DNA of 64,000 bases, from the IMG/VR virus record IMGVR_UViG_3300032320_001447, positions 64,001-128,000 of that record. One strand, 5' to 3'. The translations under genes and the position numbers were made by a program. Source of the stretch: a virus. Lineage: Duplodnaviria > Caudoviricetes. The notes under the pieces were generated by a model that searched no databases, was not told where the DNA came from, and saw nothing but the letters and a program-made list of their open reading frames with translations. Positions 1 through 51,640 of the stretch are shown here, piece after piece (position 1 is the first letter of the stretch; the number at the start of each line of letters is the position of its first letter).

Positions 1-184
1 ACAAAAGATCTAGAGCGATCTGTGCTGCTAACATGGATTTACCGGATCCGGCTTGTCCTTTTAAAACAGTTATTTTGTTATCGAGAATTATTGACTTGGC
101 TTGCTTTTGCTCCTCGTTTAATGGAATTAAAAACTTAATTGGATTTTTAGGAGACTTTTTTGCGATCGAGTTCGTATCAGTCAT
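1..184 (-). CDS. phoH: PhoH-family ATPase, N-terminal part (runs off window start)
   Basis: Not in ORF track. Manual translation from ATG at 184: MTDTNSIAKKSPKNPIKFLIPLNEEQKQAKSIILDNKITVLKGQAGSGKSMLAAQIALDLL; has the LNEEQK and G.AGSGKS Walker A pattern of PhoH. Confidence 0.85.
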   Translation of the reverse strand, partial: MTDTNSIAKKSPKNPIKFLIPLNEEQKQAKSIILDNKITVLKGQAGSGKSMLAAQIALDLL

Positions 185-212
185 TCAAATACCTTTCTAG
201 ATAAATATGCAT

Positions 213-243
213 AAAAAAAGACCCAACTTACGTTGGGCCTTTC
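213..243 (-). terminator. Rho-independent terminator after major capsid gene
   Basis: Minus strand AAAGGCCCAAC-GTAA-GTTGGGTCTTTTTTT, hairpin plus U-tract ~20 nt after the stop. Confidence 0.85.
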
Positions 244-264
244 TTATATAGATCTTAAAATAGA

Positions 265-3142: not shown

Positions 3143-3286
3143 TTGTTATAAAATAATGTGTGTTCTGATTGCTTATTGTAATGTGAAGCAATATGTAGAT
3201 AAAATTCGTGTAGCTACCGCATTAGAAAGCGGTGCATGTACCAATAAATACGGCACTTTTTTCGAAAAATATGTATATACTAAAAA

Positions 3287-32842: not shown

Positions 32843-32853
32843 ATTAGAAAATA

Positions 32854-33960: not shown

Positions 33961-34298
33961 TGGAAAAAGTAGATTTAGTAAAAAAAGTATACGGTATTAA
34001 TACGTATTCGAAAGTAGTAGATACTAGCTTTTCTGAATTAATTACGCCTGCTCCTATAGTAAGTGCTAGCGTTGTAACTGTTGAACAGTTTTTTGAAGAA
34101 TACGATCAATTGTTTTTCGACATACCTGTTACTGGAGAAATTAATTCTCACACATATTTAGTTAATAGAAGCCAACAATATATAGGAGGCTCGGTTATAG
34201 ATGCTGAAAAGCAAGCATTGATAGAAGAGATTAACTCTTTGCGTCAACAGTTATTAGATTTGAATCAATCATTTTCGTCAATAAGTAATTTAGTTTAA
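33960..34298 (+). CDS. Small structural-block protein
   Basis: 112 aa, start overlaps previous stop, C-terminal coiled coil. Confidence 0.55.
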   Translation: MEKVDLVKKVYGINTYSKVVDTSFSELITPAPIVSASVVTVEQFFEEYDQLFFDIPVTGEINSHTYLVNRSQQYIGGSVIDAEKQALIEEINSLRQQLLDLNQSFSSISNLV

Positions 34299-37200
34299 TG
34301 GAATTAGTAAAAGTATCGGTAAAAGGAACGGGCATATCTGCTCAACAATATTCGCCTATAGATAATTCGCTAATTACTAGTAATTTTATAAATTCTAGTT
34401 TTGGAGCTAAAGAAGACTATATTGAAATTTTCATATACGATCAAAATGGAAATATTCTTTTGTCTGACTATGATGGATTCGATTATTATCCTTACTTAAC
34501 TTCTAATCCTCAAAATAATTTATATAACGTAATATCTTTAGATCCACAAAAAGATGTTATTAATAGAGGTTTTACAAGAGGATCTGTTAATATTCAATAT
34601 TCTTTTTTTAAGAAACTATTTAATTCTCAGTTCGGAAAGACCTACTGGATAAAAGAAATTTCAGAATCTAGAACAGAACTTAAGCTTGCTTCTCAAGTTA
34701 TTAGTGACATAGGAATCATAGAGGGATTTGACGTTTATCAAAATTACATTTCTACTAAGAATTACTATAGCGATTTTTACCTAAATTTTGGAGATAATAA
34801 TTTAGTAATAGGTGTTAATGTGGCTGTAGCGGAAGACGAAGAAGGTACTTTTTTATTAGTAAAGTTATACGAACCGCTTGATGCAGATATCGATGTAAAG
34901 GCACAACTTTGGATAGTTGATAAAATATCAGAAGCCATAAATTATAACGTAGATATTCAGGTTCCCGCTGTTGACGAAAACGAAGCAAATAGATTACGTG
35001 GACCTAACTTCGCTGTTAGAGTTTCAGAAAAAATAGGACAAACTACTCCTTATTATTCTTACAATAGTTTAATTGCTAGTAATTACACTTCTTCATTCCA
35101 AAAATTATTAAGTTACTATCAAGATAAATCTGTAGAGATTAATGTAGACTATAGTAACTTTGGTAATTTTATTCACTTCTCAAGCGCTGTAGAAAGATTA
35201 GAAAATTTTAAATACAAATTAGAATTAATTGAGTCTTACAATAACGATATAAGATTAGCTAATTCTTACTCTTCTCAATCTCCAACTGCGGCTTCTTCTT
35301 CCATAGGATTAGCTAGCAACTCGATAAATAATGTAATTAAAAATTTCGATACCTACGAATACTTTTTATATTTTGATTCAGGAAGTTGGTCTTGGCCTAA
35401 GCGTAATAATACACAGCCTTTCGCGTTGTATTCTGTAACGTCTTCTCAAGCATCTAATTGGTTGGGTTCTATAGACACTGTAACCACTCCAACGACCGCT
35501 TCTTTATTATACTCAGCTTCTTTATACGACTATTCAAATAAAGATTATTTAAGATACAGTATTCCACAATATCTATTGGACGATTCTAGCAATCAACCGT
35601 ATCTTACATTCTTGGATATGATAGGTCAACATTTTGATAATATTTGGATTTATTACAAAGATGTTACAAATAGATTTGACGCTACAAATAATCCTAATAC
35701 CGGTATTTCTTTAGATTTAGTTTCTGATGCTTTAAGAGGTTTGGGCTTTGAATTGTATACTAATACTAGTATTACTAATAACCTATACTACACTTTATTT
35801 GGCATTAATCAAGATGGAACTTTATTGCCTCCAACTGGATCTGAGCGCATTACAAATTATGTAACCTCTAGTATTGCTACTTTACCAGGTCTTCAAATAC
35901 AAGACGAATATTATAAAAGACTTTATCACAACTTACCTTATTTATTAAAAACAAGAGGTACTCAAAGAGGCATAAAAGCTTTGATCGCTTCGTACGGTAT
36001 ACCTGATACAATATTAGACGTTAAAGAATTTGGAGGAGTTTCAAGAGAAACTCTCGCTGGTATATACGATATAGACAGTGAAGATTATAAAATAACAATT
36101 GCTACAGGTAGCAATGGACAAGTGACAGGAAGTAGTTCTATATCTTCTTCTTTACTGTCTTATAGCACAACCTTACAGTATTATTCTACAGACAAAAGAT
36201 TAAACTCTGCTAACGTAGAAGTTGGATTTAGTCCAAGCAATACCGTAAATAATAATATAACGGCCTCAGGAGTTATCATTGGCAATATAGATCAGTACAT
36301 AGGAAATCCTAGCTACGCCAATCTTTCTACTTATCCCGCTTTAGATACTTTAAAAACTACATACTTTCAATCCTACGATAAGCCTAAAAGCGTTTGGGAG
36401 TACATTAGACTGATTAAGTTTTACAATAATAGTTTGTTTAAGACTATAAAAGATTTCGTGCCTGCGAGAGCCAATTTATCTACAGGTATTATTATAAAAT
36501 CTCACATACTAGAAAGAAACAAATACGCTAGAAACGAACCTAGCGCAAGTGTCAATCAGTATTCTGAATCAATAGAATTGCTTTCTATTACTGGATCCGC
36601 GGCTAATACCATATCAGGCTCTACTAATTGGCAGGCTCCTTTATTAACTTTGGTTGGATATGTTCCATATTCTTCTTCTCAAAATATTGAAAAATTTACT
36701 GGAGAATTCAGTGGCTCTATTATAACAGCGACTGACTATGAAAGTTTTCCTCAAATAGAATACAACAATAACGTATCTAGTAGTAATGCCTCTTTATCTA
36801 ATTTAACTAGCTCTTTATTGGCATTATATCAAAATGTTACCGCATCAGTTAGATCTCAAAAGTATTTTGATTTAGACTATACGTCTAATCAATCCACACC
36901 AGTTAATTTTGGAATAGTTACTCAATCCATATCTCAAAGTCAAGTATCCGGATTCGACAATCAAGGCGCTTACACCTCTTCAACCGTTCCTTACGCGGAG
37001 TTACAGGATAGCAACTATGCTTTGCAAAGTTTTACAATTCCTAGATATTACGGATCAAAAACAATTAGTGCTACGTATACGGACTACACTGTTGGAGACG
37101 CCTCTTACGGAGATACTGCCGCTATTGATAAAATTAAATTTCAATATGCATACCTAGTAGACATATACTCTTCCTCTTTACAATTACCAGAAAGATCTAA

Positions 37201-38389
37201 CGCACAGATAAAATATATTATTGATAATGAAGAAAATGTGTTAAATTTAACAAAACTTAATAATAACATTTTTACTTCTCAAAACTTATATAAATCAGGA
37301 GAATCTGTAGATATATCTCTATTTGATTACGATCCAAATAATCCAGATGGTCAATTCTTAACGAATAACTCTAATGTAACTTTGTATGAAGGTGGGTTTA
37401 GGTACAGTCCAATTTTATATAATCCTAATGGAGCAGCTAGTTTAACTTATAACTTTGCGACTCCTATTGTTACCACCGGATCTATTTCAACTCCTGGAGG
37501 AGATACTTATACAGCGCCATTGGATCAATATAATTATTTTAATTGGACTTCAGCAGTTGACTATTCTTACTCTACCCAATATAGCCAAATAATTTGTACA
37601 ATTACAGCATCTGTGTCTCCGTCTCCTCTTACACAAACTATAAGACTCACTTACTTATTTGAGCCTAATTCGAGAGGCATTTCTAATGGTTTTTTAGAAC
37701 AAGAGAGATATCTTACCGTAAGTAATGGTGCAACAGTTAGTCCTTTAGGTAGCTCAGCTGCAAGAGCTTTTTTCGCAGGATTTAGTCCAGTATATTATTT
37801 TGATCCGGTATTAGTAGGAGCTGAAGCAGTAGTAGCCGGATCTGGAGGATCTACTTCGTTTAATGTGTATTCTACTAGTTCTATAGATATAAGTCCTTCT
37901 TGGACCTACAACACATCATCTGCTGGAGCAAATGTTGTAAGACTATCGGCAACTCAATCGCTATATTACTTAAGTCCTCAATTCGTGCAATCAGGTAGCT
38001 ACCCAGGCATAGAGCAAGCTGTATTCCCTTTTCAATTAAATGTCAATGATTTGATTAGACTATATAATTATACTAGTAGTCTATTAGATAGAAATGACGA
38101 ATATAGAGTCGTAAACACCTTTGTTGAAGCCTCAGGATCTAATAATTTTCCCTATGTCAATGTAACATTAGATAGACCAATTTCTCCCGCTAACTATACT
38201 AGTAGTTACGCTATTTATAAATACATTGTGCTTAAACATATTCCAGACGAGACTAATTTAATACTTGAATTAAATGGAGCCTATAATATTCCAACCGATG
38301 GATTAATATTTCCTAAGTATATTAGTAAAATTGCCAGAGAAAACTCAGGTAATGTGATAAAATCATTAAAACAACAAAATCTAATTTAA
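34298..38389 (+). CDS. Large baseplate wedge/tail protein
   Basis: 1363 aa; FLDMIGQHFDNIW, NLPYLLKTRGT..GIKALIA.YGIP, IKDFVPAR; Ser/Thr-rich. Confidence 0.65.
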   Translation: MELVKVSVKGTGISAQQYSPIDNSLITSNFINSSFGAKEDYIEIFIYDQNGNILLSDYDGFDYYPYLTSNPQNNLYNVISLDPQKDVINRGFTRGSVNIQYSFFKKLFNSQFGKTYWIKEISESRTELKLASQVISDIGIIEGFDVYQNYISTKNYYSDFYLNFGDNNLVIGVNVAVAEDEEGTFLLVKLYEPLDADIDVKAQLWIVDKISEAINYNVDIQVPAVDENEANRLRGPNFAVRVSEKIGQTTPYYSYNSLIASNYTSSFQKLLSYYQDKSVEINVDYSNFGNFIHFSSAVERLENFKYKLELIESYNNDIRLANSYSSQSPTAASSSIGLASNSINNVIKNFDTYEYFLYFDSGSWSWPKRNNTQPFALYSVTSSQASNWLGSIDTVTTPTTASLLYSASLYDYSNKDYLRYSIPQYLLDDSSNQPYLTFLDMIGQHFDNIWIYYKDVTNRFDATNNPNTGISLDLVSDALRGLGFELYTNTSITNNLYYTLFGINQDGTLLPPTGSERITNYVTSSIATLPGLQIQDEYYKRLYHNLPYLLKTRGTQRGIKALIASYGIPDTILDVKEFGGVSRETLAGIYDIDSEDYKITIATGSNGQVTGSSSISSSLLSYSTTLQYYSTDKRLNSANVEVGFSPSNTVNNNITASGVIIGNIDQYIGNPSYANLSTYPALDTLKTTYFQSYDKPKSVWEYIRLIKFYNNSLFKTIKDFVPARANLSTGIIIKSHILERNKYARNEPSASVNQYSESIELLSITGSAANTISGSTNWQAPLLTLVGYVPYSSSQNIEKFTGEFSGSIITATDYESFPQIEYNNNVSSSNASLSNLTSSLLALYQNVTASVRSQKYFDLDYTSNQSTPVNFGIVTQSISQSQVSGFDNQGAYTSSTVPYAELQDSNYALQSFTIPRYYGSKTISATYTDYTVGDASYGDTAAIDKIKFQYAYLVDIYSSSLQLPERSNAQIKYIIDNEENVLNLTKLNNNIFTSQNLYKSGESVDISLFDYDPNNPDGQFLTNNSNVTLYEGGFRYSPILYNPNGAASLTYNFATPIVTTGSISTPGGDTYTAPLDQYNYFNWTSAVDYSYSTQYSQIICTITASVSPSPLTQTIRLTYLFEPNSRGISNGFLEQERYLTVSNGATVSPLGSSAARAFFAGFSPVYYFDPVLVGAEAVVAGSGGSTSFNVYSTSSIDISPSWTYNTSSAGANVVRLSATQSLYYLSPQFVQSGSYPGIEQAVFPFQLNVNDLIRLYNYTSSLLDRNDEYRVVNTFVEASGSNNFPYVNVTLDRPISPANYTSSYAIYKYIVLKHIPDETNLILELNGAYNIPTDGLIFPKYISKIARENSGNVIKSLKQQNLI

Positions 38390-38415
38390 CATATTTATTT
38401 TTAAAGCAACTCTTT

Positions 38416-39078
38416 ATGTCTTATTTAAGTAGTACTTCAGTCGTAGTCGATGCCATTTTAACAAAAAAAGGCCGCGAATTATTGGCAAGAAACGATGGTT
38501 CTTTCCAAATCACTCAATTTTCTTTATCTGATGATGAGGTAGATTATACTCTGTATAATCCAAACCATCCTTCAGGATCAGCTTTTTATGGAGAGGCGAT
38601 AGAAAATATGCCAGTCCTTCAAGCCTTTCCAGATGACACGGAAATCATGAAGTATAAGCTTATAACTCTTCCAAGAGGCACAGCCAAACTTCCAGTGTTG
38701 GATTTGGGATACAACAGCATTTCCCTTCGTCAAGGCGCAAGTCTTTCTATTACGCCACAAACATTAAATTACTTAGGCGCCACTAGTACTTACGAACAGT
38801 CTGGATATGTTGCTACTATCGGTGATGTTAGAACGATGAACGGTAATTTTGTAGGAGTTGGAATTAACACCCCAGAAGTAACTTCATTAAATGCGACTAC
38901 AACTATAGGTACTAACGTAAGTAAGACAGTAATTGGCACAACTATCAATATGACTGCTACTACTATTAATACTCTATTCGGAAACAATGCACAATTACAG
39001 ACAACATTAATTGTTACAGGTAGAGATTCAGGAGCTAGAATTAGTATTCCGGTAACGATCATTAAAACAAACTCATAA
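38416..39078 (+). CDS. Putative baseplate/tail structural protein
   Basis: VDAILTKKGRELLA...ITQFSLSDDEVDY.LY (T4 gp8/fibre N-terminus-like LT..GR pattern). Confidence 0.6.
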   Translation: MSYLSSTSVVVDAILTKKGRELLARNDGSFQITQFSLSDDEVDYTLYNPNHPSGSAFYGEAIENMPVLQAFPDDTEIMKYKLITLPRGTAKLPVLDLGYNSISLRQGASLSITPQTLNYLGATSTYEQSGYVATIGDVRTMNGNFVGVGINTPEVTSLNATTTIGTNVSKTVIGTTINMTATTINTLFGNNAQLQTTLIVTGRDSGARISIPVTIIKTNS

Positions 39079-39089
39079 TAATTTAATAT

Positions 39090-40121
39090 ATGTCTTTTAC
39101 TCAATTTGATCAATCGGATTTCGTAATATCCAATGATTCTGTTACTGCTCCAGCATGGAGTACTAATGCACCGACATTGACTTCTTTTTTTACATTAAGT
39201 GGTAACGCGACTGGCAGCTATTACGTAGATGTATATCAAACTGCATCTACTTTAAGCAACGCAGCAATTCAATTTTCTATAGCCTACGGTCATATATACG
39301 GATCAGGTTCTATACCGTTAAATCCTTTGGTTCCTCAAAATACACCTACTAGAGTTACTTTCGGTCAATATAGAAATTTAATTTACGGAGACGCTGAATC
39401 AAATGTAAACTTTGGATCTGGGGCAACCGCTTCTTTAGATCTAATAGCTATTCCTATAGATAGAAATAGGTACAAAGGCAACTTATTTCCTGGTACTTTT
39501 AATTTACAATTAGGATTTGGTACTTATGCTCAAAAATTAAAGTTAACCGACAATTCTAATGACGTTTCTACAATTACTTACTTAGATTGCGGAAGAGCTT
39601 TCAATATTATATCTGGATCCAATGGTACAGCGGCTAATAGTCCATTAATATCAGGAGCTCCAGCTAAAGGCTACACACCTTCTGGTTCTTACGGATTATT
39701 TTTACCTGATGTGGGTTTAATTTTATTGAATCCCACTGCTTTAAGTTTGCCTACTGCTGGTGGAGGTTTAGCAGTCACTTGGTCAAATAGCACAACAACA
39801 AATGGTTTAAATAATGCAAGAGCGTTTGAACTTATCAACTCTGGAAGTTCTTTCGCTTTAAATAGTCAAGAGCAGATATCTTCAGATTATGTGTTTGTTA
39901 GAGTTAGAAATTCTGAATACAATTATACATCTAATCCATCTATAATCAATGTATCTGGAAGTTTAATATACCCTAATTTTATTAATAGTCCTCAGACTTA
40001 TATGACAACTGTTGGTTTGTATAACACAAATAATGATCTTTTAGCGGTTGCTAAATTATCAAAACCATTGGTTAAAGATTTCACTAAGGAAGCATTAGTT
40101 AGAGTAAAATTAGACTGGTAA
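39090..40121 (+). CDS. Putative baseplate/tail-fibre attachment protein
   Basis: C-terminal EYNYTSNPS...TYMTTVGLYN..NDLLAVAKLSKP...VKLDW. Confidence 0.6.
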   Translation: MSFTQFDQSDFVISNDSVTAPAWSTNAPTLTSFFTLSGNATGSYYVDVYQTASTLSNAAIQFSIAYGHIYGSGSIPLNPLVPQNTPTRVTFGQYRNLIYGDAESNVNFGSGATASLDLIAIPIDRNRYKGNLFPGTFNLQLGFGTYAQKLKLTDNSNDVSTITYLDCGRAFNIISGSNGTAANSPLISGAPAKGYTPSGSYGLFLPDVGLILLNPTALSLPTAGGGLAVTWSNSTTTNGLNNARAFELINSGSSFALNSQEQISSDYVFVRVRNSEYNYTSNPSIINVSGSLIYPNFINSPQTYMTTVGLYNTNNDLLAVAKLSKPLVKDFTKEALVRVKLDW

Positions 40122-40124
40122 AAA

Positions 40125-41360
40125 ATGAGTATCGCAAAGAATACCATAAGGTTTTCTGATATAACTACCACTCCTATAAAATTAAAGTATTCAGCTTCTT
40201 ATTCAAGCCAATCTTTTTCAAACTTAGGAGTTACTATAAATGGTGGTGTTAACGGTCCTACCGCTAGTTTAGACCCAATTACTGCTATGACTTATAATAA
40301 CAATTATAGGTTAGTTAAACAACTCTATTATACTAATTACATAACGGGATCTTTATTAGGAACTGGTAGCGCATGGGATTCTTCTTTGCAATCCACAGCA
40401 GCTTCTGGAAGTATGGATGCAGATATTAGATCTTTTCCCACTGGAAGTAATGAAAGAATTAGTTTTTTAGCAATTCCAAGAACGGTATTTGGAGAAAATA
40501 TAAGTAGAAACACGTTAGCTATATCAAGCACTAATGGTACTAGTTATAAATTAATAGACGACGGTAATGGAAATATTATAGACGCAAAAGCAAATTACGT
40601 TCATGTTGGAAATATAATATATTCTCAAGGCATAATTACTTTTACTAATCAAGATTATGTTTCTGCGTTCTTTAATAATAATTTTACTTTTACAGTTTCT
40701 ATAGTTCCTCCATCCCCTACGCCAAGCGTTACACCAAGCCTAACTCCTAGTGTAACTGTTACGCCTTCTATAACGCCTAGCGTAACTATAACTCCATCAG
40801 TTAGTGTAACTCCTAACGCTAGCACAACTCCTAGTGTAACTGCTACTCCTTCTGTTAGTGTTACGCCTCCTATAACGCCTAGCGTAACTATAACTCCATC
40901 AGTTAGTGTAACCCCTGTAGTTAGTGTAACACCTTCAGTTACAATAACTCCGTCCGTTACAATTACACAGTCACCGTCAGCTGGTTCGGTTTCTATTACT
41001 GTAAATGATCCAGGTTCTTTCCCTTACCCTGTATCAGCCGGTAATGGATCCGCTTCAGGTACAATTAGTAATACCTCTGGAGTTACGGTATACGTTTATA
41101 TAGTATTTAATAGCGGAGGTAACAATTCAGGAAATATAGGAAGTGATAGTGGTGTTGTAGACGGAACAAGCATTCCTATGAGTGGAACTGTAACAGCATT
41201 CGGACAAACTATATACTCAGCAACCTACGCTACTATAGCAAACGGATCTACTGGATTAGCTTGGAGCTTATCTAAGCAAGACACATTGTCAAGCGGAGCA
41301 ACATTAAGATTAGGCTATTCAACAACTATAGGAGGTGCTATAACTCTTCTATCTCCATAA
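40125..41360 (+). CDS. Structural protein: N-terminal domain paralogous to upstream gene + mucin-like TPS stalk + C-terminal beta domain
   Basis: LAIPR..FGE.I, LIDDGNGN, VGNIIYSQGII followed by (TPSVT(I/V))n repeats. Confidence 0.7.
   Translation: MSIAKNTIRFSDITTTPIKLKYSASYSSQSFSNLGVTINGGVNGPTASLDPITAMTYNNNYRLVKQLYYTNYITGSLLGTGSAWDSSLQSTAASGSMDADIRSFPTGSNERISFLAIPRTVFGENISRNTLAISSTNGTSYKLIDDGNGNIIDAKANYVHVGNIIYSQGIITFTNQDYVSAFFNNNFTFTVSIVPPSPTPSVTPSLTPSVTVTPSITPSVTITPSVSVTPNASTTPSVTATPSVSVTPPITPSVTITPSVSVTPVVSVTPSVTITPSVTITQSPSAGSVSITVNDPGSFPYPVSAGNGSASGTISNTSGVTVYVYIVFNSGGNNSGNIGSDSGVVDGTSIPMSGTVTAFGQTIYSATYATIANGSTGLAWSLSKQDTLSSGATLRLGYSTTIGGAITLLSP
40707..40980 (+). repeat. Mucin-like Thr-Pro-Ser coding repeats
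   Basis: TPSV/TPSVTI 12- and 18-nt units. Confidence 0.9.
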
Positions 41361-41393
41361 AAATAAAAAACTAGAAGATAATTATAAAAAGAG

Positions 41394-43280
41394 ATGCTGG
41401 TAACAATACAACTTACGAATTATGGGGATGCAGTAGGTCCATTTAATATCTACTACGACCTGGACTATGTTAGCCCTTTCACTATTGCTGCATCCAACGT
41501 ATCTCTCGCTAATTTAATTAATGGCTATGAAGTAGATATAGATACGTTATCTGTTAGAGTGGTATTAGAAAATTTGAACCCATTTGGAAACAATAATTAT
41601 GTAGAAGTATTCTTAGTTCCTCAAAGTCCTTCTCCTACTCCAAGCATGACTCCTTCTATTACAGTTACTCCTAGCATGAGCATCACTCCTAGTGTAACTG
41701 TAACTCCTAGCGTAACTATAACTCCATCAATTACACCTAGTGCTAGCATTACTCCTAGCGTTACTATAACTCCTAGCATTAGCATAACTCCAACAGTTAC
41801 GCCTAGTGTTTCTATAACTCCTAGTGTTACTATAACTCCTAGCATTAGCATTACTCCAACAGTTACTCCTAGTGTTACTATAACTCCTAGCATTAGCATT
41901 ACTCCAACAGTTACTCCTAGTGTTTCAATAACTCCTACTGTAACGCCATCAGTTTCAATAACTCCTAGTGTTTCAATAACTCCTACTGTAACGCCATCAG
42001 TTTCTATAACTCCTAGTGTTTCAATAACTCCTACTGTAACGCCTAGTGTTTCTATAACTCCTAGTTTGACTACAACGCCTACTGTAACACCATCAGTTTC
42101 TATAACTCCAACAGTTACGCCTAGTGTTTCTATAACTCCTAGTGCTACTATTACGCCAACAGTTACTCCATCGACTAGTGTTACTCCAAGCATAACGATA
42201 ACACCAACAGTTACTCCATCTACATCAATAATACCAATAACATTATCAGTAACTGCATTTTGTGATGAACCTGTTTATAATGGAAATGGCAGAATATACG
42301 CTAATGCATTTGGTGGCGGCACAAATAGTTTTGATTATATAACAATTAGTGCGATATCAGCGGCAGACGCGCTATCTAGATTAGATAATCCAGCAACAAG
42401 AACATTTATAGGTGGAGCCACAGAGTATAATTTTACTGGACTAATAAATGATACCTATTATGTAGCTATAATGGATACAGTGGGTAATAAAGGAGTATCA
42501 ACGGCCGTCGTGGTATCTTGTATAGCGCCTTCGCCTACACCGACTAGAACTCCTAGTTCAACGCCAGCACCAACACCTAGTTTAACACCGACTAGAACTC
42601 CTAGTTCAACGCCAGCACCAACACCTAGTTTAACACCGACACCAACGCCTACTCCTCCATTAACAAAATATCTAGTTGAATTATGCGGTGGAGGTGAAGG
42701 ACCATACGTTGTTTCGTTAGCAAGCGGTGATTTCCCTGCAGGAATAGGTTGGTCGTATAAGTTGTATAAAGAAAGTACACCATTTGATGGAATTAAATGT
42801 TGGGAGATCTTAGAAAATCCTTCAACAGGTACTTTGGATTACGATGCGGTTGCTTTTGGCCCTTCTTATAACAACTGTACGGCTTGTCTTCCGCCTCCAT
42901 CACCAACGCCTAGTTTAACACCAACTATAACACCAACACCGACGCCTAGTGCTGCGTTAGGATACGCATTCGTAGATATTGCTAATAACACGGCTGGTAC
43001 AGATATTACTAATATTACAATAAACGGAGTACAAGTAGACGGAGCAGTTTTCCCAATAGTTGCTGGTGATGGAGCATCTGCTACAACAACAGAGACTGGC
43101 GCATCAAGAACAATAGTTGTATCTTATACAAATATAAGTAACGACTCCGTTGAGGTGATTGATACTGCATCAAACCTTACTTGTATAAGCGCAACATCAA
43201 CAAGTAGAACATTTTCTGGACAAGTTGTAAGCGATGCAGGTACAGTAACAATTTCAATGTTTGATGGACCATGTCCATAA
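41394..43280 (+). CDS. Mucin-like modular virion (fibre/whisker-type) protein
   Basis: 628 aa; four small beta domains, some Cys-containing, separated by three Thr/Pro/Ser-rich linkers, the first ~200 aa. Confidence 0.7.
   Translation: MLVTIQLTNYGDAVGPFNIYYDLDYVSPFTIAASNVSLANLINGYEVDIDTLSVRVVLENLNPFGNNNYVEVFLVPQSPSPTPSMTPSITVTPSMSITPSVTVTPSVTITPSITPSASITPSVTITPSISITPTVTPSVSITPSVTITPSISITPTVTPSVTITPSISITPTVTPSVSITPTVTPSVSITPSVSITPTVTPSVSITPSVSITPTVTPSVSITPSLTTTPTVTPSVSITPTVTPSVSITPSATITPTVTPSTSVTPSITITPTVTPSTSIIPITLSVTAFCDEPVYNGNGRIYANAFGGGTNSFDYITISAISAADALSRLDNPATRTFIGGATEYNFTGLINDTYYVAIMDTVGNKGVSTAVVVSCIAPSPTPTRTPSSTPAPTPSLTPTRTPSSTPAPTPSLTPTPTPTPPLTKYLVELCGGGEGPYVVSLASGDFPAGIGWSYKLYKESTPFDGIKCWEILENPSTGTLDYDAVAFGPSYNNCTACLPPPSPTPSLTPTITPTPTPSAALGYAFVDIANNTAGTDITNITINGVQVDGAVFPIVAGDGASATTTETGASRTIVVSYTNISNDSVEVIDTASNLTCISATSTSRTFSGQVVSDAGTVTISMFDGPCP
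41619..42232 (+). repeat. Long mucin-like TPSVSI/TPTV coding repeat array
   Basis: Recurrent actcctagtgtt / actccaacagtt units. Confidence 0.92.
42537..42632 (+). repeat. Exact 48-nt tandem duplication (TPTRTPSSTPAPTPSL x2)
   Basis: acaccgactagaactcctagttcaacgccagcaccaacacctagttta repeated twice. Confidence 0.92.
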
Positions 43281-43410
43281 AAAACAAAATTTGGAATATA
43301 AATAAAAATTAATATATAAATAGGTATAATATACTATACGTACTTACATACTTTGTTTTCTACTTTAAAAATAAATTTTACATTGTAAATTAAAAGTTTT
43401 AGATTACATT

Positions 43411-44667
43411 ATGCCAAAAATATTTGTTTCGATAGCATCTTACAGAGACCCTGAATTACTTCCTACACTTGAAAATTTATTAGATAATGCAAAGTATCCT
43501 CAAGACCTTGTTATTTGTATAGGGTGGCAGCATTCAAAAGAAGACAAATGGGACAATTTAAAGAAATATAAAAGGGATCAGCGATTTAAGATCATAGATA
43601 TAGACTACAAAGAGTCCAAGGGAGTTTGTTGGGCAAGAAGCGAAATACAAAAACTTTACACAGACGAGGACTACTACCTTCAATTAGATTCTCATCACAG
43701 ATTTACAAAAGATTGGGACGTACAATTAAAAGATCTTTTGCACTATCTTATGTGCAAGGGTCATGAGAAACCTTTACTATCTGCTTACATCCCAGGATAT
43801 TTTCCAGAAAAAGATCCTAAAGACAGAGTTAACGAAGTTTGGGGTTTAAACATAGACAGATTCATGCCGGCTGGCGCCATATTCTTAAGACCTCATCACA
43901 TAGAAAAGTTTGAGGAATTAAAAGAGCCTTTCTCAACCAGATTTATATCGGCTCACTTTATTTTTACCATTGGAAAATTTGTAAAAGAAGTGCCTTACGA
44001 TCCAAACTTATACTTTCATGGAGAAGAGAGTTCTTTAGCCGCTAGAGCTTACACTTACGGATACGATTTATTTGCTCCACACAAAGTGATAGTTTGGCAC
44101 GAATACACAAGAGAGGGAAAGAAAAGACATTGGGACGATAGTCAAGATTGGAAAGCCAAAGACGATGCTTCTTACTCAAGATTTAGAAAACTATTTGGTA
44201 TGGATCCGGGTTGTACGCCATGTCAAAGAAAAGCGCTAGCTCCTTACGGATTCGGTCCAACGAGATCTTTAACTGATTTTGAAAAGTACGCAGGTTTAAA
44301 ATTTGCAACAAGACAAATACACAGAGAGACTCTAAAAAATAATTTTCCTCCAATAAAATCAGATTACGAATCGGGTCTTGCATCTAGTCAAAAGTACTGT
44401 ATAGACATTTATAAAGGATCTTTAACAGAAAAAGATTACGATTCTTTTGTTGTTGCATTTTTGGATGAGAACGGAGAAGATATATACAGACAAGATTGTA
44501 ATAAGGAAGAAATTCAAAGCATGATGAATCTTGATGTAAACAATAAATTCATTCATATATGGAGAAATTTTGAAGCTGTAGAAAGACCAGTTTGTTGGAG
44601 AGTTTGGCCTCATTCAGAATCTATGGGTTGGATGGAAAGAATAGAACAAAAAATATCATATGAATAA
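43411..44667 (+). CDS. GT60-like polypeptide N-acetylhexosaminyltransferase (Skp1 GlcNAc-transferase family), paralog 1
   Basis: IFVSIASYRDPEL, GVCWAR, YYLQLDSHHRF..WD (DxH), FHGEE, YTYGYDLF.P, G.G..RSL.DFE. Confidence 0.85.
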   Translation: MPKIFVSIASYRDPELLPTLENLLDNAKYPQDLVICIGWQHSKEDKWDNLKKYKRDQRFKIIDIDYKESKGVCWARSEIQKLYTDEDYYLQLDSHHRFTKDWDVQLKDLLHYLMCKGHEKPLLSAYIPGYFPEKDPKDRVNEVWGLNIDRFMPAGAIFLRPHHIEKFEELKEPFSTRFISAHFIFTIGKFVKEVPYDPNLYFHGEESSLAARAYTYGYDLFAPHKVIVWHEYTREGKKRHWDDSQDWKAKDDASYSRFRKLFGMDPGCTPCQRKALAPYGFGPTRSLTDFEKYAGLKFATRQIHRETLKNNFPPIKSDYESGLASSQKYCIDIYKGSLTEKDYDSFVVAFLDENGEDIYRQDCNKEEIQSMMNLDVNNKFIHIWRNFEAVERPVCWRVWPHSESMGWMERIEQKISYE

Positions 44668-45934
44668 TAAGTTACAGACCATACTCGTACATTTACCTGC
44701 TTATAGGGACCCAGAATTGGTGCCAACTATTAAGAACGCACTAGAGAATGCGAAATATCCAAAACGAATTCACTTCGGCATTTGTAGACAATACAACCCA
44801 GAAGATCTTTTCGATAATGTAGACGAGTTTAGAAATGACAAACGTTTTCATATCATGGACGTTTTGTACACAGAAGCTCAAGGTCTACCATGGGCAAGAG
44901 CTCAAATCAACGAGAAGCTTTTAACCAATCAAGATTACATTTTACAACTGGATTCTCATCACAGATTCGCAGAGAATTGGGACGAGACTTTAATTGAAAT
45001 GCATAGCGATTTAGAAGCTCAAGGATACAAACCAATCTTAGGGGCTTATTTGCCATTGTATACTCCGTTTAACGATCCAGAAGGACGTACCATGGAGCCA
45101 TGGCAGCAGACCTTTGCTTGCTTCTATCCTCACGGAACTATCTTCATCAGACCAGGATTGCTACACGGTTGGCAAGACATGATAGAACCACCAATGAGTA
45201 GATTCTTATCTGGCCACTTCTGTTTTGCTAGATCTGAATGGGCAAAGGAGATAAAACACGATCCAGATATCTATTTTAGTGGAGAAGAATTAAACTTAAC
45301 TGTTAGATCTTACACTCATGGATACGATTTATTCCATCCGCACAAATTAGTTGTTTGGCATTCTACTATGAGAGAAGAGAGATCTGGCATGTTGAAGTGG
45401 GACGATGATTCTAAATTAGGAGTTAATTGGTTCCAAAAGCAAGAGTATGCAAGAAAAAAGATTAGAGTCTTATTAGGAACAGAAGAGGATCCAACTATAG
45501 ATTTAACTGGATACGATTTGGGTACAGTGAGAACTTTAAGAGATTTTGAAAAGTACGCAGGATTTCACTTCAAAAGGAAGTCTGTTCAAAAATATACACT
45601 AGACAACAAGTATCCGCCTAATCCATTGATAGAAGACGATGAATTATGGGAACAGTCTTTCATGGGATCTTTCTACCATCTAGTTACTATATATCCTCAT
45701 GACTTTCCAAGAAAGGATTATAAACATATCTTAGTAGCATTCGACGATGAAACAGGTAAAGCAGTGAATCACAAGTACATTGCTGGCGAGGAACTAGAAA
45801 ACTTTATGCACAAAGGACAACAAATACACTACGAAGAGTTTTTCTTAACAAATAAAAATCCTTCTAGAGTAGTATATTGGGGATTCACAGAAGAAGAAGG
45901 TTGGGTTGAAAGAGTAGAACATAAAATAAATTAA
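44660..45934 (+). CDS. GT60-like polypeptide N-acetylhexosaminyltransferase, paralog 2
   Basis: AYRDPEL, GLPWAR, ILQLDSHHRF..WD, FSGEE, YTHGYDLF.P, LGTVRTLRDFE. Confidence 0.85.
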   Translation: MNNKLQTILVHLPAYRDPELVPTIKNALENAKYPKRIHFGICRQYNPEDLFDNVDEFRNDKRFHIMDVLYTEAQGLPWARAQINEKLLTNQDYILQLDSHHRFAENWDETLIEMHSDLEAQGYKPILGAYLPLYTPFNDPEGRTMEPWQQTFACFYPHGTIFIRPGLLHGWQDMIEPPMSRFLSGHFCFARSEWAKEIKHDPDIYFSGEELNLTVRSYTHGYDLFHPHKLVVWHSTMREERSGMLKWDDDSKLGVNWFQKQEYARKKIRVLLGTEEDPTIDLTGYDLGTVRTLRDFEKYAGFHFKRKSVQKYTLDNKYPPNPLIEDDELWEQSFMGSFYHLVTIYPHDFPRKDYKHILVAFDDETGKAVNHKYIAGEELENFMHKGQQIHYEEFFLTNKNPSRVVYWGFTEEEGWVERVEHKIN

Positions 45935-45938
45935 AAAT

Positions 45939-46637
45939 ATGAATAAATTTGTAGAATTGCTCAAAGCATGCGACAGTTTTAAAGTAGACACTTTATACTG
46001 GGATCACGACATTTTAGCGCCTTTTGAAAATGATTTAAGAAATTATCCTGCTCCGTGGATAAAAAAGACCGTAGAATTATTAAAAATAATAGACGGAAAA
46101 GTAGTAGTAGAAATAGGATCTACAAGAAGAGAGATGACTCAATCTTGTTTAAACTACTATGACAACTGTTATACCATGACTCCTGCGCAAGCACCCGGTT
46201 GTTGTCAAGATGGACACTCTACTCATTTTTGGGCAGATGCTGGATTCGAAACTTATACAGTAGATATAGATGAAAATTGTAGAGTTCAATTAGAAAATCA
46301 GTATAAGTATCATATTCAAAAACCTATACCGGATAATTTACACATATGTATACCTCAAGATGGAATAGAATTTTTAACTAATTTTGATAAGAAAATAGAC
46401 TTATTATTTTTAGACGGTTGGGATAAAGGTTCTCACAATTACGCAGAAAAACATTTAGAAGCATTTTTAGCTGCTAAAGATAAATTGTCTGATTTACATT
46501 TGGTATCTATAGATGATACAGATTTTAATACTGAAAGTGCTGGTAAAGATAAATTATTAACGCCTTATTTATTAGAGAATGGATATATCAAAATACTTTG
46601 GGGAAGACAAATTGTTTTCATAAAGAATCAAATATGA
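45939..46637 (+). CDS. Class I SAM-dependent methyltransferase (probable glycan O-methyltransferase)
   Basis: VVVEIGS.R, YTVDID, DGIEFL, IDLLFLDG, IDD. Confidence 0.75.
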   Translation: MNKFVELLKACDSFKVDTLYWDHDILAPFENDLRNYPAPWIKKTVELLKIIDGKVVVEIGSTRREMTQSCLNYYDNCYTMTPAQAPGCCQDGHSTHFWADAGFETYTVDIDENCRVQLENQYKYHIQKPIPDNLHICIPQDGIEFLTNFDKKIDLLFLDGWDKGSHNYAEKHLEAFLAAKDKLSDLHLVSIDDTDFNTESAGKDKLLTPYLLENGYIKILWGRQIVFIKNQI

Positions 46638-47566
46638 AATTAAATTTCTATTACGAAAATCCTATTCCTGGTTCAATGGCTGGAAATGTATGTCATTTGG
46701 TTGCAGCAGAAAGATTCTTGAATTTATGTAAGAACGCCTATCCTGATATAGAGTTTAATTACATAAATTCTTGGGGAATTACTTATGAAAATGGTTTACC
46801 AACCCTTAGAAGTTGTCCAGGTTGTAAATTTAGTCACTTCTTCGTAATAATAGAAAACCCAGATAATAAAAAGTTTTTTGTTATTTCTTATTGGGACAAA
46901 TTAAAAGACATCACTTTAGACGGCACTTTTTGGGATTTAGAAAATTGTATGGGAATATTTCCATCTGCGGGAACTCACACTGACGATTTTTCTTTTAGAT
47001 CTATAGATTTAGATTATACTCCTATCGCTCCTTTAACTATACATAAATCTTTAGAAGATAAAGCGCAAGAATTATATCTCTTAAATGTTCCTAAGACTAC
47101 ACCTAAAAGTTTATTTTTTAGAGGGGGCGATTATGGTTTTAGAAGCTACTTATCTCGTAATGATAATAGATTTATAATTAATCATGAAAGAATAGATACT
47201 GCTATATTTGCAGAGGAAATGGCTAAAAATACTATTAACATAGATATTAACGCAGTAGCTGAAATTTCTGGAAGAACTATAGATGCTATGGCTTTAGGAA
47301 CTGCTTTAATCAGGCCTAAATTGTCCATCAAATATCATAACCCTCTTATACCAGATTATCATTATGCAGAAGTTAAATGTGATGATCTTTCTAATTGGCC
47401 TAAATTAGCAGACGCTTATGTAGAAAGATTTGAAGAACTTAAAAAAGACGAAGAGCAAGTTAAATTCTTTTCAGAAAATGGAAGAAGATGGTACGAAGAA
47501 AACGCAACAATAGAAGCTCATGTGAGTATTCTTAAAAAATTAATAGACTTAAATAAACTTGCCTAA
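46634..47566 (+). CDS. GT-B fold glycosyltransferase-like protein
   Basis: LFFRG, RTIDAMALG..LI, LIPDYHY, ENGRRWY; start taken at ATGA overlap (MKLNFYY). Confidence 0.65.
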   Translation: MKLNFYYENPIPGSMAGNVCHLVAAERFLNLCKNAYPDIEFNYINSWGITYENGLPTLRSCPGCKFSHFFVIIENPDNKKFFVISYWDKLKDITLDGTFWDLENCMGIFPSAGTHTDDFSFRSIDLDYTPIAPLTIHKSLEDKAQELYLLNVPKTTPKSLFFRGGDYGFRSYLSRNDNRFIINHERIDTAIFAEEMAKNTINIDINAVAEISGRTIDAMALGTALIRPKLSIKYHNPLIPDYHYAEVKCDDLSNWPKLADAYVERFEELKKDEEQVKFFSENGRRWYEENATIEAHVSILKKLIDLNKLA

Positions 47567-47569
47567 TAA

Positions 47570-48367
47570 ATGAAAGCAGTAGTAACATTGACGACTATAC
47601 CATCTAGATTGGTTAGCATATATCACGAAGATATAAAAGTGTGTTTAGATTCTTTACTTAATCAAGATTTTGAAGATTATGAAATTCATTTCAACATACC
47701 TTATTTTTTTAAATTAACCGAAGAAGAATATATTATTCCAGAATGGTTGAACGAATTAGTTGGAAACAATCCTAAGTTAAAAATATTTAGAGGAGAAGAT
47801 TATGGGTCTATTACAAAATTAGTAGATACTATAAAAAGAATAGAAGATTCTAATTGCATTATTATCACAGCAGATGATGATTTAGTATATCATCCAGAAA
47901 TGGTAAGTGAACAATATAAAAATCAAACAGAAAGATTTAGTAATTGCGCGGTGGGTTATGATGGTATTAGTGCATTAGAACCAGTGTTTAGAGACATACG
48001 CAGTCATTATGTAGTAAGCGTTCCTTGTAATGTTAAAGTAAATGTATTGCAACACTATAAAACAGTATCTTACAAAAGAAGTTATTTTGAAGAGGATTTC
48101 TTTACTGATTTTGTAGGACAATCTTGGGCCGACGATATTTTAGTATCAGCTTATATGGGAAAACAAAAGATTACAAAATACGTAACTTACTTTGAAAAAG
48201 AAAGCATACCTGCTACTATAGAAGAGTGGAATAGCAGAGGAGGCGTAACAACGTTTCCTATAATAAAACACACTCAACACGATTCACAAGAAGGTTGCAA
48301 TATTAAAAGAAATAATCAAGAAACAGACAATTTTATGTACTTTGTGCATAAAGGATACTTAAGATAA
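47570..48367 (+). CDS. GT-A fold glycosyltransferase
   Basis: VTLTTIPSRL, DYGSITKL, IITADDD.VY (DxD), ADDILVS. Confidence 0.8.
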   Translation: MKAVVTLTTIPSRLVSIYHEDIKVCLDSLLNQDFEDYEIHFNIPYFFKLTEEEYIIPEWLNELVGNNPKLKIFRGEDYGSITKLVDTIKRIEDSNCIIITADDDLVYHPEMVSEQYKNQTERFSNCAVGYDGISALEPVFRDIRSHYVVSVPCNVKVNVLQHYKTVSYKRSYFEEDFFTDFVGQSWADDILVSAYMGKQKITKYVTYFEKESIPATIEEWNSRGGVTTFPIIKHTQHDSQEGCNIKRNNQETDNFMYFVHKGYLR

Positions 48368-48371
48368 TATT

Positions 48372-50765
48372 ATGAGTTATAAAGAAGTTTTTAGCGGCAT
48401 TTATGATAATTTTGGTTTCGGAAGTTTGGAAAGCCGATCAGGTCCAGGCAGTACTTTAGAAGAAACTAAATTTCTTAGAGAGAAATTAAAAGAAATAGTA
48501 AAACAGAAAGACATAAAATCTGTAGTAGATATACCTTGCGGTGACTTTAATTGGATGAAAGAGATTGTATTTAGTTTTGAATCTTATACTGGTGGAGATA
48601 TTGTGGAGCAGTGCATCAAAACTAATAGTGAAGAATACGGAAGCAAGAGAATAAAGTTTATTGACTTCGATCTGTTAAACGATAGTATTCCCGATTCTGA
48701 TCTTTTAATAGTTAGAGATATTGTTGGTCACTTTCCTTTAGAAGATGGAAAAAAGATAATTGATAACATACTCAGATCTAATTGTAAATATCTTTTAAGC
48801 ACCACATGGGCAAAAAACACAGAACAAGGTTGGAGTAATTGTGGTCCCATGGATGTACATAGAGAAAACGAAGGAGTTGATTATGGAAGATTCTATCCAG
48901 TTAATTTAATGGCGCACCCATTCAATTTTCCATTAGCCGAAGTATTTTTAGAAGAAGACGTACGCGTAGATAATTTTGATAATGGAAATAGAAAGGCTTT
49001 AGCTCTATGGGATTTAGATAAAGTTAGAGAACATTTAAAAACAGTTGAACCAATACAATCTTTTAATACAGAATCAACAAAAAATTTAACAGTAGTTACA
49101 GGACTTTGGAATATTAATAGAAATGGCAGACCATTCGATCACTATATAGATAATTTTAAAAAGCTGTTAGATACCCCTCAGAATTTATTTATCTTTATTG
49201 AAAAAGAATATGAGCATTTAGTTTGGGATAAAAGATCTCCAAAAAATACTTTTGTTAAAATCTATGAGTTAGAAGACGTTAAAAACTTATACTCTCCTTT
49301 TTGGCAGAAAACTCAAGACCTTAGAAACAGTCCAGATTGGCATAATATCACTGGTGAAAATGGATGGTTAAAAGACAGTCCGCAGGCTAGCTTAGAGTGG
49401 TATAATCCAATAGTAATGTCAAAAATGTTTATGCTACACGATGTAACCATTTGGAATCCTTTTGATACAGAGTATTTTATATGGTTAGACGCAGGAATTA
49501 CTAATACTGTATATGAAAAATATTTTACAGAAAATAATGTGCTAAATAAAATAACTAGTTACTTAGATCCGTTCCTATTTTTATCTTATCCTTACGAAGC
49601 TGTCGATGAAATTCATGGATTTAAGTATGGAGAAATGAATAGGTATGCAGGTACTAAAGTAGAATATGTATGTAGAGGAGGGTTATTCGGAGGAAGCAAA
49701 GCCGCTATACATGAAGCAAATAGTGAATATTACAGTTTACTAAACAATACCTTATCTGACGGGTTGATGGGAACAGAAGAAAGCATTTTTACTATAATGT
49801 CTTATCTTTATCCTAACAGATATAGAAGATTCGAATTAGACAGTAACGGTTTAGTAATTAAATTTATACAAGCTTTAGATAGCGAAAATTTGCAGTTATC
49901 CGAAATTAAAAAGGATTTGGATTTTATACCTAATAAAAATGTTAACGTAGATAATTTAAAGACATCTATTTACATGTTGACTTTTAATTTTCCTCATCAA
50001 GTAGAACACACAATTCAAACTTGGTTAAAGCACTCAAGATTCATTAGCAATACAAGAAATATTTTAATAGATAATTCGACAAATGAAGAGGCTAGAATTG
50101 CCAATAAAGAAATTTGTGATAAGTACGGATTCGAACATATCATAACAAATGAAAACGCCGGTATCAATGGAGGCAGATTCAGAGCGGCCCAGCACTTCCA
50201 AGAATCAGATAGCGATTACTACTTATTTTTAGAAGACGATATGGGAATCCATCCTCCAGAAGAATTAGGTTTTTGTAGAAATGGATTTAGATATTTTGTT
50301 CCTAATTTGTACGATAACATTCTTAAGATAATGCACGGAAGCGATTTAGACTTTCTAAAATTATCTTACACAGAAGTTTACATGGATAACAATATTCAAG
50401 TCTCTTGGTATAATGTTCCTCAAACAGTTAGATCTGAATTTTGGCCCGATTATGATAAACTTCCTGTAACAGGACTTGACACTAATTGTCCTAGAACCGC
50501 TTTCAACAAAATAGAAGTCGTAGACGGTCTTAGCTATATTACTGGAGAAATCTATTACGCTAACTGGCCTATGATTGTGGGTAGAAAAGGCAATCAAAAG
50601 ATGTTCTTAGACACTACTTGGGCTAGACCTTACGAACAGACTTGGATGAGTTATATGTTCCAAGAAACTAAAAAAGGTAATTTAAAACCAGCGGTGTTAT
50701 TAGCTAGCCCAATTAACCACGATAGAATAGCTCACTATAAACCCGAAGAAAGACGAGAGAACTAA
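48372..50765 (+). CDS. Three-domain protein: methyltransferase-like + HtrL/YibB-like glycosyltransferase + GT-A glycosyltransferase
   Basis: SGPGST...VVDIPCGDFNWM...GGDIV; TVVTGLW...MSK.FML...NPFDTEYFIWLDAG...GGLFGG...GTEE; LIDNS...YYLFLEDD. Confidence 0.78.
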   Translation: MSYKEVFSGIYDNFGFGSLESRSGPGSTLEETKFLREKLKEIVKQKDIKSVVDIPCGDFNWMKEIVFSFESYTGGDIVEQCIKTNSEEYGSKRIKFIDFDLLNDSIPDSDLLIVRDIVGHFPLEDGKKIIDNILRSNCKYLLSTTWAKNTEQGWSNCGPMDVHRENEGVDYGRFYPVNLMAHPFNFPLAEVFLEEDVRVDNFDNGNRKALALWDLDKVREHLKTVEPIQSFNTESTKNLTVVTGLWNINRNGRPFDHYIDNFKKLLDTPQNLFIFIEKEYEHLVWDKRSPKNTFVKIYELEDVKNLYSPFWQKTQDLRNSPDWHNITGENGWLKDSPQASLEWYNPIVMSKMFMLHDVTIWNPFDTEYFIWLDAGITNTVYEKYFTENNVLNKITSYLDPFLFLSYPYEAVDEIHGFKYGEMNRYAGTKVEYVCRGGLFGGSKAAIHEANSEYYSLLNNTLSDGLMGTEESIFTIMSYLYPNRYRRFELDSNGLVIKFIQALDSENLQLSEIKKDLDFIPNKNVNVDNLKTSIYMLTFNFPHQVEHTIQTWLKHSRFISNTRNILIDNSTNEEARIANKEICDKYGFEHIITNENAGINGGRFRAAQHFQESDSDYYLFLEDDMGIHPPEELGFCRNGFRYFVPNLYDNILKIMHGSDLDFLKLSYTEVYMDNNIQVSWYNVPQTVRSEFWPDYDKLPVTGLDTNCPRTAFNKIEVVDGLSYITGEIYYANWPMIVGRKGNQKMFLDTTWARPYEQTWMSYMFQETKKGNLKPAVLLASPINHDRIAHYKPEERREN

Positions 50766-50772
50766 TATTTAT
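50765..50772 (+). promoter_or_regulatory. Putative late promoter ATATTTAT (representative; + strand copies also at 26488, 30093, 38391, 51086, 62128)
   Basis: Same motif 5-20 nt upstream of many late gene starts. Confidence 0.7.
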
Positions 50773-50778
50773 TAAAGT

Positions 50779-51084
50779 ATGCCAGCAGTACCAGTAGTAC
50801 CATATTCTCTATCCTTTTTGGCCGAATCAACGATTTACCAAAACGAGGTTAGATGTAAAGTTAACGAAAACGATTTTAATTATACACTTAATAGATCTGC
50901 TATTATAGAAGGAACTAGCGGATCTTATATAAATGCTGTAACTGGATCAGAATTTAGGCCTTACGCAACTACCGTGGGTTTATACAACGATGCAGATGAA
51001 TTATTAGTGGTTGGTAAATTATCCACTCCATATCCTATTCCTTCAAATACAGATATGACCTTTATTATTCGTTGGGATAGCTAA
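50779..51084 (+). CDS. Stand-alone C-terminal module of baseplate/tail protein family
   Basis: DFNYTLN.S...PYATTVGLYND.DELLVVGKLS.P...IRWD matches the C-terminus of 39090-40121. Confidence 0.75.
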   Translation: MPAVPVVPYSLSFLAESTIYQNEVRCKVNENDFNYTLNRSAIIEGTSGSYINAVTGSEFRPYATTVGLYNDADELLVVGKLSTPYPIPSNTDMTFIIRWDS

Positions 51085-51106: not shown

Positions 51107-51580
51107 ATGTCAAATTGGTTATACGAAGGGAAACAGCTCACTCAACTAAAAGATTTCCCAGATGATGTTGTAGGATTTGTCTACAAAGTCACAAACAATA
51201 AAACTGGCAAATTCTACGTCGGTAAAAAAATCCTTAGAAACGTTCTAACAAAAACGCTAACAAAGAGAGAAATTTCAGAGTGGATTAAACCAGGGCGTAT
51301 TCCAAAGAAAAGAAAGGAAATTAAAGAAAGCAATTGGGCAGACTATTACGGTTCAAGCAAATTGGTAACAGAAGACATTAAAACCTTCGGTAAAGAAGCA
51401 TTCACTAGAGAGATATTAAGAGTTTGCACGACCAAGAAACAGATGAGCTATTGGGAGACTTATTATCAAATGACACTAAAAGTTTTAGAGGTGAATAGCT
51501 ATAACGAGAATATAGCAGGTAAATGGTACCGCAGGGATGTCAATCCAATCACACCCGAGCTCGAGGCCGAAGAGGAATAA
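51107..51580 (+). CDS. GIY-YIG (Seg-like) endonuclease
   Basis: GFVYKVTN..TGKFYVGKK, YYGSS, F.REIL, YNENI. Confidence 0.8.
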   Translation: MSNWLYEGKQLTQLKDFPDDVVGFVYKVTNNKTGKFYVGKKILRNVLTKTLTKREISEWIKPGRIPKKRKEIKESNWADYYGSSKLVTEDIKTFGKEAFTREILRVCTTKKQMSYWETYYQMTLKVLEVNSYNENIAGKWYRRDVNPITPELEAEEE

Positions 51581-51608: not shown

Positions 51609-51640
51609 AAAAGGGAGCCCGAATGAGCTCCCTTTCTTAT
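51609..51640. terminator. Bidirectional terminator between convergent blocks
   Basis: AAAGGGAGC-ccgaatga-GCTCCCTTT. Confidence 0.8.

Follow-up and report, generated by a model that had tools for sequence, protein, structure and literature searches.

In phage tail-fibre and receptor-binding-protein cassettes a conserved anchor is combined with exchangeable distal parts, and the phage split genes known to us are mainly those of enzymes interrupted by homing endonucleases. Among the T4-like phages, such genes-in-pieces include Aeh1 nrdA, split by mobE, the T4 topoisomerase genes 39/60, with mobA, and DNA polymerase gene 43, which is split in phages 25 and 44RR (PMC2988022). Islands bounded by nuclease genes (homing endonuclease gene, or "HEG," islands) have also been described, and such nuclease-bounded islands are proposed to promote the exchange of cassettes in other phages (PMC10448857); virion glycosylation has been reported for mycobacteriophages (Freeman et al., 2023, via PMC11256854). 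Here we describe a 64,000-nucleotide (nt) stretch of the viral record IMGVR_UViG_3300032320_001447 in which a gene of the phage structural operon, contiguous in relatives (gp105 of Flavobacterium phage vB_FspM_immuto), is encoded as two separate open reading frames (ORFs), with fibre and glycosylation genes between them.

Results

The window, by which we mean the whole 64,000-nt stretch, covers bases 64001-128000 of a 174-kb viral record that is rated complete. Its structural genes are related to those of vB_FspM_immuto (immuto) and, more distantly, to those of Microcystis phage Mel-JY01 and Rhodothermus phage RM378. The features at issue are listed below (aa, amino acids; L numbers are our labels for the loci compared, and L016 is a metagenomic phage); an earlier note on this DNA had placed the three ORFs at 39090-40121 (343 aa), 40125-41360 (411 aa) and 50779-51084 (101 aa), all correctly.

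39090..40121, + strand: P0001, the 343-aa unsplit paralogue, homologue of immuto gp106 (49% identity), with an N/central domain and a C module
40125..40694, + strand: N piece of the split gene, residues 1 to ~190 of the 411-aa protein P0002, aligning to L016 1-~172 and gp105 40-235
40695..41360, + strand: graft on the N piece, a ~90-aa T-P-S-[VI] repeat stalk and then a ~125-aa distal domain, with tandem DNA repeats at 40741-40973
50765..50772, + strand: ATATTTAT, motif close to the start of the C piece, whose ATG follows after 6 nt
50779..51084, + strand: C piece of the split gene, the 101-aa protein P0003, matching gp105 248-356 at E 1e-24 and L016 177-269 at 72% identity

In immuto, the gene that follows gp106 is gp105 (357 aa), and both pieces align to it: residues 41-176 of P0002 with 40-235 (E 8e-6 and 2e-5) and residues 10-100 of P0003 with 248-356. 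L016 has a contiguous 269-aa gene in which residues 1-174 are 52% identical to the N piece and residues 177-269 correspond to P0003; the contiguous gene of L029 encodes 291 aa. Alignment of the two parts to one contiguous homologue had been set beforehand as the test of the split proposed in the earlier note, and immuto gp105 and the 269-aa gene of L016 are two such homologues. Because relatives carry the gene in one piece, the window gene is genuinely in two; as judged from these alignments, this is a true gene fission, the one-piece gene of relatives being represented here by two separate ORFs. In the window the pieces are separated by 9.4 kb and eight ORFs, and the reading frame of the N piece runs on for 220 further residues to its stop. 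The L016 protein, used as a database query, retrieved 256 relatives. Of the top 120, taken together with the loci, 89 proteins are fused, 25 are N-only (174-206 aa) and 11 consist of the N part and an extension.

The C module of P0001 (residues 254-326) is 39% identical to the 101-aa protein over 75 residues (E 1e-9), in agreement with the likeness pointed out previously. The likeness also claimed for the N/central parts of the 343-aa and 411-aa proteins stands in part. BLASTP found no match between these two proteins; full-length profile-profile comparison of the P0001 and P0002 families is collinear (columns 54-281 vs. 88-346, probability 99.4%, E 5e-22) and pairs exactly the motifs that had been named, and its score comes mostly from the C module, so that the match weakens to E 1.2e-3 and a probability of 20% when that module is trimmed off. 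The 411-aa protein does switch abruptly into Thr-Pro-Ser (TPS) repeats, at residue ~193-195 (nt ~40701-40707), and its only PHROG match, phrog_15511 (E 9e-4), covers the stalk and distal part, outside the N piece. The fusion of a Thr/Pro/Ser stalk to the N piece is seen in relatives as well: a T/S/P-rich stalk directly follows the N domain in 10 of the 11 extended N pieces, where it is usually poly-Thr, unlike the TPSV repeat of the window. We considered whether FTFTV, in the N piece, and YSLSF, in the C piece, mark a short duplication at the break, and dropped the idea, as other extended N pieces lack such a duplication.

The C piece has the marks of a working gene. A search with P0003 gave 58 viral-contig loci, and in those at 51-100% identity it is nearly always a standalone ORF of 96-137 aa (about 20 distinct sequences); pairwise dN/dS lies between 0.04 and 0.2, with dS saturated. 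Both sides are fully visible in eight distinct loci (the window, L010, L012, L017, L062, L065, L069 and L070), and in 8/8 the standalone C piece stands directly 5' of a SegE-type GIY-YIG gene, as it likewise does in L028 and L035, two loci whose contigs end within the N piece. In most split relatives ATATTTAT lies 4-6 nt 5' of the C-piece ATG, even when the upstream gene is a different one. The proposal that the orphan half acquired its own start signal is thus upheld by the conserved ATG and ATATTTAT (the copy at 50765-50772 being the motif already noticed), with dN/dS showing that the piece is maintained; both halves are under selection. With 15 copies in the window vs. 10.4 expected by chance, ATATTTAT is not over-represented; 13 of the 15 lie 4-24 nt upstream of a start codon on the same strand. 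Copies stand, for example, at the following positions.

26488, 30093, 38391, 50765 and 51086, + strand: ATATTTAT
5318, 7277, 11537, 17219, 19904, 52109, 57111 and 62031, - strand: ATATTTAT

The motif is a candidate phage promoter or a translation-start element with a very short leader. A scan for sigma-70 promoters gave no enrichment over shuffles and was uninformative.

All distant relatives are fused, so that fission is the derived state. Within the clade of the window, the C-piece tree implies three changes of state and the N-piece tree four, and well-supported branches force at least two. Identity matrices for five genes are mutually consistent: fused L016 is closest to the split L062, L065 and L012 in every gene, and fused L029 is closest to split L017 in four of the five (those available for the pair). 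This agreement across five genes indicates that the pattern is not one of local recombination and that the state itself changed repeatedly; by these trees and matrices, it has done so at least 2-3 times among close relatives. The most parsimonious history is one old fission followed by two re-fusions, the alternative being several independent fissions.

The break falls at one position in the protein. An AlphaFold2 (AF2) model of the natural fused L016 protein (mean predicted local distance difference test score, pLDDT, of 79; predicted template modelling score, pTM, of 0.66) places it in the loop at 166-176, between a strand at 162-165 and a 20-residue strand at 177-196, with pLDDT 83-91 at the junction. 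N-only proteins end inside this loop ("...TNQDYENALIQ*," the asterisk marking the stop), exactly where extended forms go on with "...ALIDTP...," and C pieces start 6-35 residues ahead of the long strand ("MP..Y[ST]L.[FL]..E[ST]TIYQNEV"). The same loop takes in-frame insertions, of ~25 aa in L040 and of ~240 residues in a 591-aa orthologue in Mel-JY01. The latter is the last of five consecutive Mel-JY01 proteins (L067, 6853-15799) that all carry the P0001/gp105 unit, two of them with N-terminal extensions of 390-620 aa.

What lies between the halves varies greatly. In the window, the cargo comprises, besides the graft on the N piece, the following genes.

41394..43280, + strand: 628-aa protein with three TPS-repeat stretches between globular domains (phrog_15511, E 6e-18)
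43411-44667 and 44660-45934, + strand: two paralogous PF11397 "GlcNAc" glycosyltransferases (Pfam E 8e-70 and 8e-52, far above cut-off)
45939-46637, + strand: methyltransferase-like
46598-47566, + strand: 322-aa ORF of unassigned function
47570-48367, + strand: GT2-like
48372-50765, + strand: 797-aa HtrL_YibB and GT2-like protein

In L010/L011 there is nothing between the pieces save 16 nt, with a double stop and a change of frame, and in L065/L066 there is only a 92-nt spacer. The gap in L062 holds two genes, one of them a GT2; those in L012, L069 and L070 hold three to five small genes, some with GT6; that in L017 holds one PF11397-type transferase and TPS proteins; that in L035 holds three fibre-sized proteins (609, 747 and 811 aa); and L006, L008, L018 and L028 carry different sets of glycosyltransferases. 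The genes at the ends of the window island (PF11397 transferases, HtrL/GT2 protein) are common to the close relatives L006, L008 and L018, with the middle genes replaced, so that cargo has turned over between the halves. The earlier note had attributed the split to the 10-kb island and had named island-free relatives with separate parts as the finding that would speak against this; L010/L011 and L065/L066 are such relatives, and that causal claim is not borne out. Taken together, splits with no island, with small or differing cargo, and their recurrence point to the gap as an old, recurrent cargo bay inside a gene.

Because the two PF11397 proteins match their family so strongly, the TPS stalks of the window are probably O-glycosylated by the island enzymes. 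We take PF11397 to correspond to CAZy family GT60. GT60 polypeptide alpha-GlcNAc-transferases make GlcNAc-O-Thr on Trypanosoma cruzi mucins (PMC9472816).

The downstream boundary of the variable region and the surroundings of the split gene are conserved.

51107..51580, + strand: SegE-type GIY-YIG gene, conserved downstream boundary of the variable region (PF19835, E 7e-30)
51609..51636, both strands: bidirectional terminator-like hairpin at the end of the + strand structural operon (12-bp stem, 6 GC pairs, T runs on both strands)
38416..39078, + strand: conserved 220-aa upstream neighbour, homologue of immuto gp107 (73% identity), preceded by ATATTTAT at 38391

The PF19835 match scores 104 bits against a cut-off of 25 and covers model positions 1-123 of 123; by eye, the window protein seems to have the GIY, YIG, Arg, Glu and Asn positions. 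The gene is syntenic in immuto (gp100, a copy annotated as "NAD synthetase"), in Mel-JY01 and in nearly all loci, and this fixed position in the relatives seen is unlike that of an actively invading element. No homing endonuclease gene lies between the halves; the SegE-like gene follows both, and between them there is cargo or nothing.

The long + strand operon runs through gp25-like, Baseplate_J-like, 368-aa, 112-aa, 1363-aa and 220-aa genes to the 343-aa gene. The gp105/gp106-type position is conserved, after gp25-like, Baseplate_J-like and ~1400-aa genes and before fibres or the GIY-YIG gene, and the homology to immuto gp105/gp106-type proteins covers both N and C parts. The P0001 family counts >7800 database proteins at E<=1e-5, all unnamed, indicating that this phage group is abundant in sequenced environments; Pfam and PHROGs searches assigned no family to P0001 or P0003. 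The ~1400-aa structural gene (window 34298-38389) is itself two ORFs in some relatives (L069 4001-8247, as 567 + 848 aa; L010 1-7600; L017 3-3722), which could be a second fission or a frameshift within the same gene block. Elsewhere, ORFs with stretches of >=60% Thr/Pro/Ser occur at genome positions 32782-34731 (-) and 165913-167214 (-) and at window positions 2670-3317 (+), and the genome at 40-60 kb matches immuto tail-spike genes weakly; this phage therefore has other fibre-like, possibly mucin-like, proteins.

Discussion

We consider that a gene of the baseplate/tail-fibre block has undergone fission, that its pieces reassemble and that the gap between them serves as a cargo bay, and we would put the probability of this reading at roughly 70%. 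A two-domain protein of the gp105 family is encoded as two polypeptides, the break falling in a predicted surface loop before a long beta-strand; the N piece would be translated within the structural operon, directly after the 343-aa gene, and the C piece expressed from its own ATG with the conserved ATATTTAT element. The pieces would then come together non-covalently in the virion, where the C piece would pack its first strand on the N-domain sheet. Such a break would open an intergenic gap, the cargo bay, within an essential structural unit: distal fibre modules could fuse to the free C-terminus of the N piece (in the window, the Thr-Pro-Ser stalk and distal domain), and accessory genes could be parked behind it (in the window, the second TPS protein and about seven glycan-building genes). 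The conserved half-genes, and possibly the adjacent GIY-YIG nuclease, would supply the homology and the breaks for swaps of cargo between phages. Of this scheme, the data establish the fission and where it lies, that it is old and recurrent, that selection acts on the two halves and that the cargo turns over; we infer the reassembly, the virion location, the glycosylation and the role of the nuclease.

A more elaborate version, which we regard as speculative and somewhat doubtful, pictures a plug-in socket: the C piece would donate a beta-strand in trans, leaving the C-terminus of the N piece free for any module, and the half-genes together with the GIY-YIG nuclease would act as recombination handles that move fibre-plus-glycosylation cassettes within a very abundant group of aquatic phages. 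Strand donation is proposed because the structure matches to the N domain (residues 19..186 of the L016 model, 19..263 of the P0001 model) take in the first strand of the C part, which is the sole and an indirect basis for it.

Several observations weigh against the combined reading. The structure matches just cited are alignment ranges with Z below 5, the best being 4.6 (9euf_b, the phi812 baseplate) and 4.3. Foldseek with both AF2 models (L016, P0001) gave no match at E<=0.001, VIA likewise gave none above noise, and profile and sequence searches of the PDB gave no match; the ESM Atlas returned only unnamed viral clusters. The location in the baseplate is assigned by synteny alone because neither model matches a solved structure, and the suggested "baseplate anchor" role of the N piece likewise comes from gene position alone. 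Binding of the two pieces to each other is a prediction drawn from sequence and a single-chain model. The AF2 model of P0001 reaches pLDDT 85-95 over residues 20-265 but stays <50 throughout the C module, and this module, the most conserved part and yet poorly modelled, may need an oligomer or a partner in order to fold. Moreover, the GIY-YIG gene accompanies all forms, the fused one included, and is no marker of the split.

The halves may instead have diverged in function after fission, so that the N piece now anchors a fibre and the C piece, no longer bound to it, acts independently as a small protein of the baseplate or of fibre assembly. We think this unlikely, although N-only proteins of 174-176 aa, which are common, appear whole even though they lack the C strand, and the C piece is expressed from a signal of its own as far as 10 kb away; the C module, common to up to five Mel-JY01 paralogues, could bind a shared partner rather than its own N piece. 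Against such divergence, the fused state, with a junction that is short and structured, reappears or persists among the closest relatives (L016, L029), and the two pieces always co-occur in the loci examined. A somewhat better candidate, still improbable in our view, is the order of events favored in the earlier note, in which a cassette entered the intact gene in each split lineage and L010 and L065 represent later losses of cargo. In its favor, cargo is present in most split loci, deletion could have left behind the 92-nt spacer of L065 as well as the mini-islands seen in L062, L069 and L070, and the N-only tail ends just where the extended sequence continues. Yet this order requires either several independent insertions into one loop or a single insertion with complete turnover of cargo, and the island of the window, which shares only its end genes with the islands of close relatives, is not the original insert. 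The trees leave fission-first and insertion-first unordered, a point that weighs against both.

Readings without two working polypeptides fare far worse. The ORFs might be rejoined into one chain by an intein, trans-splicing or translational bypass; the gap in L010 is only 16 nt, and T4 gene 60 is a precedent for the bypass of a short gap by a phage. We give this very little credence, as the window pieces are 9.4 kb and eight ORFs apart with the N piece, itself ending in a globular domain, continuing for 220 residues, L010 has a double stop, a different frame and no matching take-off and landing codons, and both the ATG of the C piece and the motif upstream of it are conserved. A Pfam search of P0002 and P0003 at E<=0.1 found no family at all, and hence no Hint/intein domain; together with the 9.4-kb gap and the frame and stops of L010, this led us to reject the intein and bypass readings. 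The remaining idea, that the 101-aa ORF is functionless, either a decaying remnant or a partial copy of the 343-aa gene's 3' end, is the least credible of all: the ORF is short and has its C module in common with the 343-aa protein, but it is far nearer to gp105-type C ends than to P0001, and some 20 distinct relatives, with identities as low as 51%, retain it intact under the low dN/dS given above. On these grounds the pseudogene and partial-duplication readings were rejected as well.

The locus presents a putative virion gene split at one conserved loop, both halves of which are under selection across dozens of divergent phages, with the gap as an exchange site for host-interaction hardware (mucin-like stalks, distal domains and glycosyltransferases). 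Since thousands of environmental proteins belong to the family of the unsplit paralogue, host range or surface properties may commonly evolve by this route in aquatic, Bacteroidota-type phages. The locus also suggests a rule for annotation, namely that a small ORF preceding the GIY-YIG gene should be read as the second half of the gene that lies upstream of the island, and the natural series of fused, split-adjacent and split-with-cargo forms is ready material for work on the reassembly of split structural proteins.

The nearest precedent for this locus is the T4-like genes-in-pieces. There too, a gene that relatives keep whole is divided between two ORFs; both are conserved, have start and stop signals of their own and persist, their products presumably reassembling, and a gene of the homing-endonuclease type (GIY-YIG) adjoins the locus. 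The present gene differs in encoding a putative virion structural protein where those encode enzymes. Its nuclease-type gene is found downstream of the two halves, not between them, and unsplit relatives have it as well. The gap may be empty or may contain up to 10 kb of genes for fibres and glycosylation, and the N half repeatedly gains distal domains, the state being evolutionarily labile. With mycobacteriophage virion glycosylation the locus has in common glycosyltransferase genes beside virion genes, and with the mucin GT60 system of T. cruzi it has in common Thr-rich repeat candidate substrates that adjoin PF11397 enzymes; unlike these glycoprotein systems, the window case is known from its genes alone. 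In overall design the locus is also like the modular fibre cassettes and "HEG islands," joining a conserved proximal to a hypervariable distal part, with accessory genes, mosaic exchange and a boundary nuclease gene. In immuto-type relatives the fibres are placed after the intact gene; here, unlike in those cassettes and islands, the variable block is bracketed not by whole genes but by the two halves of one ancestral gene.

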